Below are positions 9,096 through 11,119 of a stretch of 64,000 bases of DNA, one piece after another. The DNA comes from Waddliaceae bacterium (GTDB lineage: Bacteria; Chlamydiota; Chlamydiia; Chlamydiales; SLOH01). The position numbers and the translations under genes are program-made. Every line of letters starts with the position of its first letter. Position 1 is the stretch's first letter. The stretch is taken from positions 60,014-124,013 of the forward strand of contig JBBDJA010000014.1 in NCBI GenBank assembly GCA_040880105.1. The letters are read 5' to 3'. Under the pieces are notes generated by a model. It was not told the DNA's origin. It saw only the letters and a list, made by a program, of their open reading frames with translations, and made no database searches.

Positions 9096-10316
9096 ATGGC
9101 AAAGAAGAAGAGCAAAACAGATCAACCTAACGCGCAAAATCCATTGATCTTACGGGCAAATCGTTTGATAGATGCATTTGCTAAGTCCGATGAAGAGCGC
9201 AATTTTTATCTGGATCGAGTCGAAGGATTTCTGGTTCTTGTTGACCTAGATAAATCACAAGAAGAACTTGATAAGTTAGAAGCCGAGCTCGAAAGTCATT
9301 CCGAACGGTATTGTTTAATTCCTAAGCTTTCCTACTATGAGACAAAAAAAATCATGGAGGGCTTTGTCAATGAAAAAGTCTTTGATATTGATATTAAGGA
9401 AAAGTTGCTTGATATCATTCAATCTAAAGAAGCCAGAGAAAATTTTATCGAGTTCATCCACGACCATATTTCCGAATTAGAAAAATGGCAGCAGTTCTAT
9501 CAAGAAAGATCGCGGATCCGTATTATTGAGTGGCTTCGAAAAAACAATTTTCACTTTGTATTTGAAGAAGATCTAGACATTCCTCTTCATACTATGGAGC
9601 TTGTAAAAGAGAATTTATTTTCACCAAAAGTGGGAAAAGAGGTGCAAGCAGCTAGAAAAACAATGGTTGCGAAGGCGCAGTCGTACTACTCCAATGAAGC
9701 GCTTAATCCCAAACCCAAACGCGGGCGCCCACCGAAGCAAGTGGCAAAATCAGAGATGGAGCCACAGATGACATCCGATATCTACACGCAAGTTCCAGCG
9801 CCTGTTCGCTCGTTTCTTTATATACCTGAAATTAAAAGCGTCACAGAGGTGACATTCTCATCTAAATATGAGACAAGGCAAGACCTTGTCGCTCACATGA
9901 GAGAGAGTGCAAATGAGGAAGGTAGAGACTTAAAGCACATTACAGAAAAACTTGCAGCTCTTCGTCAATTAACTGAAAAGTGGCATGAAAACGAGGCGGA
10001 AACGTCTCCGGACATCGAAGAAGCTCCTTCTAAACCTGTGCCAAAAAAGAGAATTACACCAGAGAGAAAGAGCCCGGATAAGATTGAAAGAAGTCCTGAA
10101 AAAAAGGCGCCGGCCACTCCTAAAAAGAAAGCACCTCCAAAAAAGGCACCTGTAGCTACTAAAAAGAAAGCACCTGCAAAAGCCGCCGCTGCGCCCGCTC
10201 CAAAAAAGAAAACGCCTGCGAAAAAACGGATCATGCCAACTAAAAAGGCAGCTGAGAAAGACAATAAAACACCCATGCGACGTGCACGCAAACTTCCTCC
10301 AAAAAAATCGAAGTGA
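9096..10316 (+). CDS. UPF0158 / CT429-like protein with Lys/Ala/Pro-rich C-terminal tail
   Basis: QNPLILR...AFAKSDEERNFYLDRVEGF; follows dapF as in Chlamydia; KKAP repeats at the C-terminus. Confidence 0.8.
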   Translation: MAKKKSKTDQPNAQNPLILRANRLIDAFAKSDEERNFYLDRVEGFLVLVDLDKSQEELDKLEAELESHSERYCLIPKLSYYETKKIMEGFVNEKVFDIDIKEKLLDIIQSKEARENFIEFIHDHISELEKWQQFYQERSRIRIIEWLRKNNFHFVFEEDLDIPLHTMELVKENLFSPKVGKEVQAARKTMVAKAQSYYSNEALNPKPKRGRPPKQVAKSEMEPQMTSDIYTQVPAPVRSFLYIPEIKSVTEVTFSSKYETRQDLVAHMRESANEEGRDLKHITEKLAALRQLTEKWHENEAETSPDIEEAPSKPVPKKRITPERKSPDKIERSPEKKAPATPKKKAPPKKAPVATKKKAPAKAAAAPAPKKKTPAKKRIMPTKKAAEKDNKTPMRRARKLPPKKSK

Positions 10317-11119
10317 GGCCGGAGAAGAGACAAGCAATTGTCGATTGGATGGCGCGTTTAGGGATTGATGAAAAGGATTTAGAAGAATCTTTTGTTTTGG
10401 GCTCCGGACGCGGGGGACAGAAACGACAAAAAACGAGCAATTGTGTTGTTCTGCGTCATTTACCGACAAAAACCGTCATCAAATATAGTAAAAGTCGCTC
10501 AAGAGAGCTTAATCGCCTGCTCGCTCGCCGCTTACTCTGTGAAAAATTAGATCCAGTGCCCGCATCTCAAAATAAAATACGAAAGCAGAAAAAAAGACGC
10601 CAGCGCCGCGGGGCTGTAAAATTCCTTTGCGATGAGACGCTTGGGCAGTTAGGGGAGTGGCTGAGAGCTGCAGGTTATGATACAGACATTGCAGCGGCCG
10701 GAACAAGTGGTGATCATCTGATCAAACAAGCAAAAAAAGAAAAACGAGTATTCATTACTTGCGATCATTATTGTATTGAAAAGGACCCAGAGTCGCAATT
10801 CTCAATCTACCTCTCATCCAATGATCAAAAGAGCGCTGTCCGTGAACTCACTGAAAAAATTTCGATCGACTGGCTATATAAACCTCTTACAAGGTGTTTG
10901 AAATGCAACACACCTTTCATAAAAGCGCCCGAGGATGCATTAAGCAATGCACTTGAAATCAACTTAGAGCCATGCTCGCATTGCCCGCGTTGCAAGCAAC
11001 AGGACCCGCATGGTACGCATACTGACAATCTGTTACAGATCTTGCGGAGTTTTCGGAGCTTTCGGTTTATTGGTGACCCAGCAAATGAGCGGGAAGAGAA
11101 AGAACCAGACGGCGCCTAA
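10313..11119 (+). CDS. Fusion of RF-1-like GGQ peptidyl-tRNA hydrolase domain and Mut7-C (PIN-like) RNase domain
   Basis: N-part LEESFVLGSGRGGQ...VVLRHLPT...SRSRELNR plus basic tail; C-part KFLCDETLGQLGEWLRAAGYDT...RVFITCD...RCLKCN...CPRC. Confidence 0.75.
   Translation: MRPEKRQAIVDWMARLGIDEKDLEESFVLGSGRGGQKRQKTSNCVVLRHLPTKTVIKYSKSRSRELNRLLARRLLCEKLDPVPASQNKIRKQKKRRQRRGAVKFLCDETLGQLGEWLRAAGYDTDIAAAGTSGDHLIKQAKKEKRVFITCDHYCIEKDPESQFSIYLSSNDQKSAVRELTEKISIDWLYKPLTRCLKCNTPFIKAPEDALSNALEINLEPCSHCPRCKQQDPHGTHTDNLLQILRSFRSFRFIGDPANEREEKEPDGA

Follow-up and report, generated by a model that had tools for sequence, protein, structure and literature searches.

The window, the whole stretch of 64,000 nucleotides analysed here, carries at positions 10313-11119 of the plus strand a single open frame of 268 codons that joins a short GGQ peptide-release domain to a Mut7-C domain, as had been proposed in an earlier reading of the letters and their translations (hereafter the sequence-only reading). 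The gene is initiated by a GTG that overlaps the stop codon of the preceding gene (GTGA). This preceding gene (9096-10316, plus strand) encodes a UPF0158 protein by Pfam, with a basic low-complexity tail, and it closes a glyA-clpP-dapF-UPF0158 run that spans 6088-10316. A prokaryotic ketohexokinase gene (4956-6173; Pfam Khk, 160.8 bits) stands at the head of the run. At its other end, the fusion gene runs on for 87 nt (11033-11119) into a convergent gene on the minus strand encoding a DUF2878 membrane protein (11033-11581, Pfam), an overlap that the earlier reading had already pointed out; DUF2878 is also the convergent neighbour in the second species described below, where the overlap measures 69 nt. 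Promoter-like sites near the fusion gene occurred at chance level (4 observed, 4.2 expected), and no terminator-like site was found on the plus strand at the locus. The source genome amounts to 1.67 Mb and is 90% complete; the named relatives of its proteins and loci belong to Chlamydiota, which makes it probably an environmental chlamydia. Further along the window (14887-18226), after a cydAB pair, lie genes that we take to be of the type I restriction-modification kind (presumably HsdM and HsdS, by their motifs).

Both domain assignments made from the sequence exceeded the Pfam cut-offs, RF-1 with 58.2 bits against 35 over residues 17-98 and Mut7-C with 88.1 bits against 23.3 over residues 103-243 (positions 2-145 of the 146 in the model), while the Mut7-C domain of the second species reached 86.9 bits over model positions 2-132. 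The protein comprises a putative GGQ peptidyl-tRNA hydrolase core of the mtRF-R/C12orf65 ('classical ArfB') kind at residues 1-81 (10313-10555, Pfam RF-1, with the GGQ triplet at 10412-10420), a shortened linker with a proximal basic patch at residues 82-99 (10556-10609), delimited by spacer counts and alignments, a junction at 10610-10618, and the Mut7-C domain at residues 102-243 (10616-11041), recognized by Pfam and by its predicted fold. The motifs previously quoted were all recovered, including the CxxC pairs at 195-198 and 224-227, and DPHGTH indeed stands in the Mut7-C domain where YWxGSH is usual. A single-sequence model of the whole fusion protein gave a pLDDT of 41.

The fusion is real, and neither recent nor a sequencing slip. 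The concern that it might be unique to one assembly or caused by a sequencing error does not hold, since the fusion recurs, in an open frame, in a second species: the only other genome of the family, a congener (G001), carries at the same locus, between UPF0158 and DUF2878, a protein of 258 residues that is 62-65% identical to the one in the window and shares 11 of its first 12 residues. Contigs of two sequencing runs span the junction without differences, although they come from one study, which may itself have supplied the DNA analysed here, and are not independent. A recent accidental joining can be set aside as well, because synonymous sites of the two fusion genes are near saturation and both domains are under purifying selection. 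The junction had also been suspected to be a former start codon, and Val102 does align with the start methionine of standalone Mut7-C proteins, but its codon is GTA in the window (CTA in the congener) and unusable as a start. The junction codons thus differ between the two species with the frame retained, and neither is a start codon. Codons 85-125 of the window gene contain no in-frame ATG, GTG or TTG, and the one in-frame start within the same interval of the congener, at codon 109, lies past the conserved Asp107.

Searches of proteins, genomes and metagenomes did not find a third fusion. Among 1358 candidates 12 matched and two were fused, our own protein and that of the congener; 3575 matches screened included one at E 1e-30 or better, the protein's own cluster; 30 longer matches picked by length among 150 listed had none with both domains; and among 120 listed of 722 matches both domains occurred only in the protein itself and in the congener. 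A search for longer forms returned three matches, all with other partners, 27 loci searched held one full-length fusion, again the congener's protein (counted once), and nine of 22 motif loci had a partial match to the GGQ loop, none of them with Mut7-C. No fusion emerged from a pattern search of 585 stretches, a weak search in that ATG was built into one of the two patterns and the gene has GTG, nor from the eight genomes of family f13, and a feature search of the ESM Atlas gave no usable match. In a phylum sample of 400 genomes, in which the counts include the source genome, short GGQ genes were present in 253 and Mut7-C in 34. In none of the 33 other Mut7-C genomes does a GGQ frame lie closer to Mut7-C than about 1.5 kb (some loci being cut by contig ends), and the two genes do not co-occur (22 of 33 against 230 of 366; Fisher p 0.71, with kin not independent). 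The search for further fusions or adjacent split pairs suggested earlier therefore yielded the same fusion in the congener, and neither a third case nor an adjacent pair in those 33 genomes; homologues are unlinked elsewhere, an outcome that the sequence-only reading had named as speaking against its own proposal. Family f4 yielded no standalone mtRF-R-like gene (0 of 29 genomes), and in family f6 it was rare (2 of 46).

Comparison of the two species showed different degrees of constraint along the gene. The GGQ core is 88% identical with a pN/pS of 0.13 (bootstrap 0.05-0.23), the fused Mut7-C is 52% identical with a pN/pS of 0.34 (0.26-0.45), and a standalone GGQ paralogue present in both genomes is 69% identical with a pN/pS of 0.23. 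The background consisted of 78 automatically chosen orthologue pairs from 22 loci of the congener (two loci in addition to 20 of its roughly 180 contigs), with medians of 83% identity and a pN/pS of 0.149; 27 pairs were at or below 0.13 and five at or above 0.34. Four congeneric pairs of other Mut7-C domains gave values of 0.23-0.44, and the fused Mut7-C evolves at a rate typical of its family. Neutral simulation predicted 22-33 nonsense changes, left the frames open in 0 of 2000 cases at each of three divergences, and predicted an identity of 11-35% for Mut7-C. Since the frame is open where neutral drift gives stops, and considering the pN/pS values, both halves have been kept by selection, with the caveat for the nonsense argument that a stop would still leave a short-tailed GGQ protein, which is a natural kind.

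The closest solved relative of the N-terminal domain is 7a5h_C, human C12orf65/mtRF-R (E 2.4e-19), with RF1, RF2 and PrfH far behind. This RF-1 domain has an intact GGQ motif and no codon-recognition domains; the alpha-i insert is absent, as seen from gap-free alignments of residues 9-87 with C12orf65 and of residues 20-100 with the RF1 domain, and the NCBIfam equivalog for ArfB/YaeJ (NF006718) scored 25.7 bits, below its cut-off of 100. In an alignment of 74 homologues the domain keeps 27 of 28 conserved columns, the sole break being Cys58 to Tyr. From these features we infer that it probably hydrolyses peptidyl-tRNA independently of the codon, as an enzyme of the mtRF-R type. Behind the core, the linker spacer counts 21 residues against 29 in 50 of the 57 sequences parsed, which makes it eight residues shorter, and the distal tail of about 25 residues found in long-tailed relatives is absent, the proximal basic patch being kept (pN/pS 0.19). 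Short-tailed members of the family occur naturally: they account for 23 of the 74 GGQ proteins, some standalone relatives combine a short tail with a short linker, and four of five genomes chosen because they carry a short-tailed copy have no other short GGQ gene.

Both mtRF-R/C12orf65 and the bacterial 'classical ArfB' group, as described in the accessible part of a release-factor survey (PMC6514570), share with the fusion this type of GGQ domain followed by a basic patch, and differ from it in the longer linker, in the distal tail and in having no Mut7-C behind. The fusion also departs from mtRF-R in that a small S4 protein of the MTRES1/RqcP kind was not found in the fusion-bearing genome. 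ArfB/YaeJ and ICT1 (ArfB class 1) likewise combine a GGQ hydrolase with a basic C-terminal stretch, but the tail of ArfB goes into the empty mRNA channel and is needed there, and its C-terminal helix is reported to hold most of the essential residues (PMC7427801, in the passages available), whereas the fusion has no free helix for that channel and a globular domain in its place. Complementation of E. coli ssrA/arfA, which had been proposed as a check, may consequently fail even with an active fusion, because the protein is mtRF-R-like rather than ArfB-like and the distal tail is absent. In a set of Verrucomicrobiota mtRF-R-like proteins (L111, L113-L116, L118) the whole GGQ loop is deleted and the basic tail retained; these could possibly be non-catalytic ribosome binders.

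The genomic context hints at a possible origin of the N-terminal half. In family f13 a standalone long-tailed GGQ gene lies right after UPF0158 in seven of eight genomes, in the same run of genes as in the window, and among 29 UPF0158 loci of other genomes only the two from f13 have a GGQ gene behind them. By position, the fused gene would then be the resident GGQ gene minus eight linker residues and about 25 tail residues. Quick trees grouped the fused GGQ domain weakly with short-tailed forms (SH-aLRT 93 with the tail columns and 81 with the core only, the core tree being built after removal of six rows without GGQ and of eight that were divergent or partial), and in a topology test a clade with three syntenic f13 genes scored higher and was not rejected (p-AU 0.58). 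The other two frames hold no remnant of the lost tail, and the two species have no slippery run in common. As for the Mut7-C half, one genome (G200) has a standalone Mut7-C gene adjoining DUF2878, a single case in the other orientation, which is a hint that Mut7-C and DUF2878 arrived together as a block behind the GGQ gene.

Besides the fusion, both fusion-bearing genomes have elsewhere a second GGQ gene, long-tailed and encoding 129 residues (L004 in the window species, on contig C1 of G000), and the four f13 genomes checked all have a single GGQ copy. Four of five other two-copy genomes also pair one long-tailed with one short-tailed GGQ gene (G036, G075, G081, G131; L245-L254), and this pairing suggests two functional subtypes. 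The long-tailed paralogue would keep the ordinary job and so leave the fused copy free to change. In the window species, at L209:6111-7682, the paralogue comes after a gene that we take to be phosphoketolase-like and near another that is presumably pterin-4a-dehydratase-like. A GGQ-Pterin_4a fusion (P0121) exists, and one further genome (G249) has a neighbourhood resembling that of the long-tailed paralogue.

The Mut7-C half combines retained and lost residues. In both species it keeps Asp107 (10631), Asp123, Asp151 (10763), the WLRxxGYD core and the Cys4 zinc-ribbon residues Cys195, Cys198, Cys224 and Cys227 (10895-10906 and 10982-10993). Asp133 and Trp232, each found in 199 of 201 homologues, are lost in both species, in the window gene to Gly (10709) and to Pro (11006), respectively; Met109 has changed to Thr in the window domain, a deletion has removed Gly234 and His236 from the congener, and two moderately conserved arginines are gone. 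Among 31 near-invariant columns the two fused domains break six and five, and of the 201 homologues 106 break none and five break five or more. The full near-invariant polar set (Asp107, Asp133, Asp151 and Trp-x-Gly-x-His), whose residues may form the active site of Mut7-C, is incomplete in the fused domain. The acid noted earlier in ITCD is thus there as Asp151, and the putatively catalytic acids whose absence had been considered are partly kept (Asp107, Asp123 and Asp151), but the near-invariant Asp133 is gone. The net charge of -1 and +2 in the two fused domains, compared with a homologue median of +2, is not unusually basic.

The predicted structure of the Mut7-C domain had a pLDDT of 91 with 43 sequences, a model that rests on 42 intact homologues and is unable to show damage. 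Its best fold match was 8q66_A, the C-terminal domain of MUT-7 (Z 9.1, rmsd 4.0, 133 residues aligned), which a second structure search also ranked first (E 0.013), and no PIN entry appeared among the 50 matches listed. We infer that fold and zinc site are probably kept and that the ancestral functional surface has been lost. The sequence-only reading treated Mut7-C as an established PIN-like RNase; in older papers this is a prediction, of a PIN-type RNase whose active-site residues vary (PMC5499597, PMC1779556). PMC5499597 states that general conservation extends to the first acid only, and calls the prokaryotic function unknown. The one solved MUT7-C (MUT-7/EXD3) is TOPRIM-like and not structurally PIN; by itself it binds RNA weakly, it raises the RNA affinity of the adjacent nuclease 6-8-fold, and isolated animal MUT7-C domains served as negative controls (PMC11347159, in the sections available). 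The fusion matches standalone Mut7-C proteins (PF01927) and MUT-7/EXD3 in sequence, predicted fold and Cys4 site, and in MUT-7, as in the fusion, Mut7-C is appended to a catalytic domain. It differs from its homologues in lacking several near-invariant residues, and from other Mut7-C fusions in having as partner a release-factor domain rather than an exonuclease, ubiquitin-like, THUMP or PGA_cap domain. The ESM Atlas contains a cluster of 79 proteins with Mut7-C and the tRNA-associated THUMP domain, commonest in Myxococcota.

Taken together, these results are best explained by a fixed, genus-level fusion. Regarding its function, the reading we favour, although tentatively, is that the release domain is active and that Mut7-C grips RNA without being catalytic itself, as a replacement for the lost tail, probably on the split 50S. 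As its sequence and selection suggest, the N-terminal domain would hydrolyse peptidyl-tRNA without codon reading, in the manner of mtRF-R. The distal basic tail, which in ArfB-type factors comes to occupy the empty mRNA channel, would have been given up, and a globular domain behind a short basic patch presumably could not enter this channel, which makes work on the split 50S more likely; the fusion would act there on subunits still carrying peptidyl-tRNA, like mtRF-R. Mut7-C would fold and bind zinc with its conserved, presumably catalytic surface largely lost, and may stand in for the tail, gripping RNA or offering a docking site without catalysis. It has been reported that split large subunits are where mtRF-R acts together with MTRES1, with no release on 70S/55S (PMC8786322), that the bacterial release factor for the split 50S is called unknown (PMC9757039), and that archaeal NFACT genes adjoin Mut7-C genes, the yeast cognate of NFACT belonging to the 60S quality-control complex (PMC4075521), as far as the available text of these sources goes. 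The archaeal NFACT(Rqc2/RqcH)-Mut7-C-AMMECR1 neighbourhood, like the fusion, ties Mut7-C to a factor of the split large subunit; there, however, Mut7-C is unfused and described as active (PMC4075521), and here NFACT_N was not found. Of other rescue factors, the genome has tmRNA, SmpB and Pth.

Several observations weigh against an RNA-gripping Mut7-C on the split 50S. Neither NFACT_N nor small S4 (RqcP/Hsp15-like) genes were found in this 90%-complete assembly, the fusion occurs in two species only, the free genes are neither adjacent (0 of 33) nor co-occurring in the phylum sample, and the losses of C-terminal motifs differ between these species, as ongoing decay would give. Since short GGQ proteins are fused to at least seven unrelated domains (apparent fusions), the fusion by itself says little; tail loss needs no replacement, given that short-tailed and short-linker standalone relatives exist; and RNA binding is not favoured by the ordinary charge of Mut7-C and the loss of two arginines. 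A bolder proposal, which we regard as unlikely, would read the fusion as a Rosetta stone. Mut7-C would in general be a tRNA/large-subunit factor of split-ribosome rescue, and the fusion would unite in a single bacterial polypeptide the roles of mtRF-R and MTRES1, the GGQ domain releasing the chain from peptidyl-tRNA that Mut7-C keeps on the 50S. The archaeal linkage of Mut7-C to NFACT(Rqc2) and the Mut7-C/THUMP fusions hint at it. If true, the mtRF-R-like family would be the bacterial factor called unknown in the accessible text of PMC9757039, and prokaryotic Mut7-C would gain a pathway.

The chief competitor, somewhat unlikely in our judgement and still to be taken seriously, is a tolerated fusion with separate jobs, in which a deletion joined two neighbours and selection maintains the halves for two unrelated functions, with Mut7-C, having lost its own start, expressed through the upstream gene. 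It fits the promiscuity of the GGQ family towards C-terminal partners, the varied fusions of Mut7-C (PGA_cap and others), the free genes that are neither linked nor co-occurring, the position of Mut7-C beside DUF2878 rather than GGQ in G200 and the commonness of short tails. Nevertheless, Asp133, Trp232 and His236 are found in about 99% of homologues, and the first two are gone from both species and the third from one, so that the old job of Mut7-C is unlikely to persist unchanged.

Improbable is the model put forward in the sequence-only reading, in which peptide release by the GGQ domain would go along with cleavage of the stalled mRNA or tRNA by Mut7-C as an active RNase. Three acids and the four cysteines are indeed kept in both species, the first acid may be the only one that Mut7-C proteins generally conserve (PMC5499597), and release factors tied to RNA handling have precedents in PrfH-RtcB and C12orf65-MJ1316 (PMC6514570), both sources being cited from their accessible parts. 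However, the loss of Asp133 and Trp232 in both species and of Gly234 and His236 in the congener makes a coupling of peptide release to RNA decay unlikely, the fold matches the MUT-7 C-terminal domain, with no PIN among the matches listed, and nuclease activity of MUT7-C was not found in the available text of PMC11347159 and PMC5499597, isolated animal domains being the negative controls. Quite improbable as well is a decaying passenger, a Mut7-C once useful and now eroding from its C-terminus, with only the GGQ domain still mattering: the losses that differ between species, the YWxGSH segment deleted in the congener, the run-on into the convergent gene and a place among the fastest-changing sequences of the background would agree with decay, but the frame is open at 52% identity where neutral drift predicts less and certain stops, and the rate is normal for the family. 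An assembly or sequencing artefact is highly improbable, since, even with both genomes fragmented (32 and about 180 contigs) and the junction-spanning contigs all from one study, the second species shares the in-frame junction with different codons and both share the shortened linker.

The combination of a GGQ release domain with Mut7-C was not found in the papers searched (subscription papers and most supplements being outside the search), consistent with the earlier statement that no description of it was known, and 'Mut7' does not occur in the accessible text or supplement of the release-factor survey PMC6514570. The architecture therefore consists of two known families joined, apparently undescribed and confined so far to two species. 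Eukaryotic C12orf65-MJ1316 and PrfH-RtcB likewise attach an RNA-handling module to a release-factor paralogue, but have other partners, are spread over many genomes and indicate RNA repair (PMC6514570, in its accessible part). Two questions meet in the fusion, namely which factor releases peptides on the split bacterial 50S (PMC9757039) and what role prokaryotic Mut7-C plays (PMC5499597), as these sources pose them in their available sections. Both could be addressed with a single small construct of the fusion, for which the normal paralogue of the genome offers an internal control. The archaeal NFACT-Mut7-C neighbourhood makes the RNA-grip reading worth testing; if the coupling is not real, the fusion is a two-species curiosity that shows how readily the release domain gains C-terminal partners. 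A more widespread fusion places Mut7-C, with its conserved residues intact, in front of PGA_cap (a CapA-like metallophosphatase) in several genomes of the phylum (L030, L032, L034, L036 and L038, of 476-484 codons, and L024, partial; P0052, P0220).
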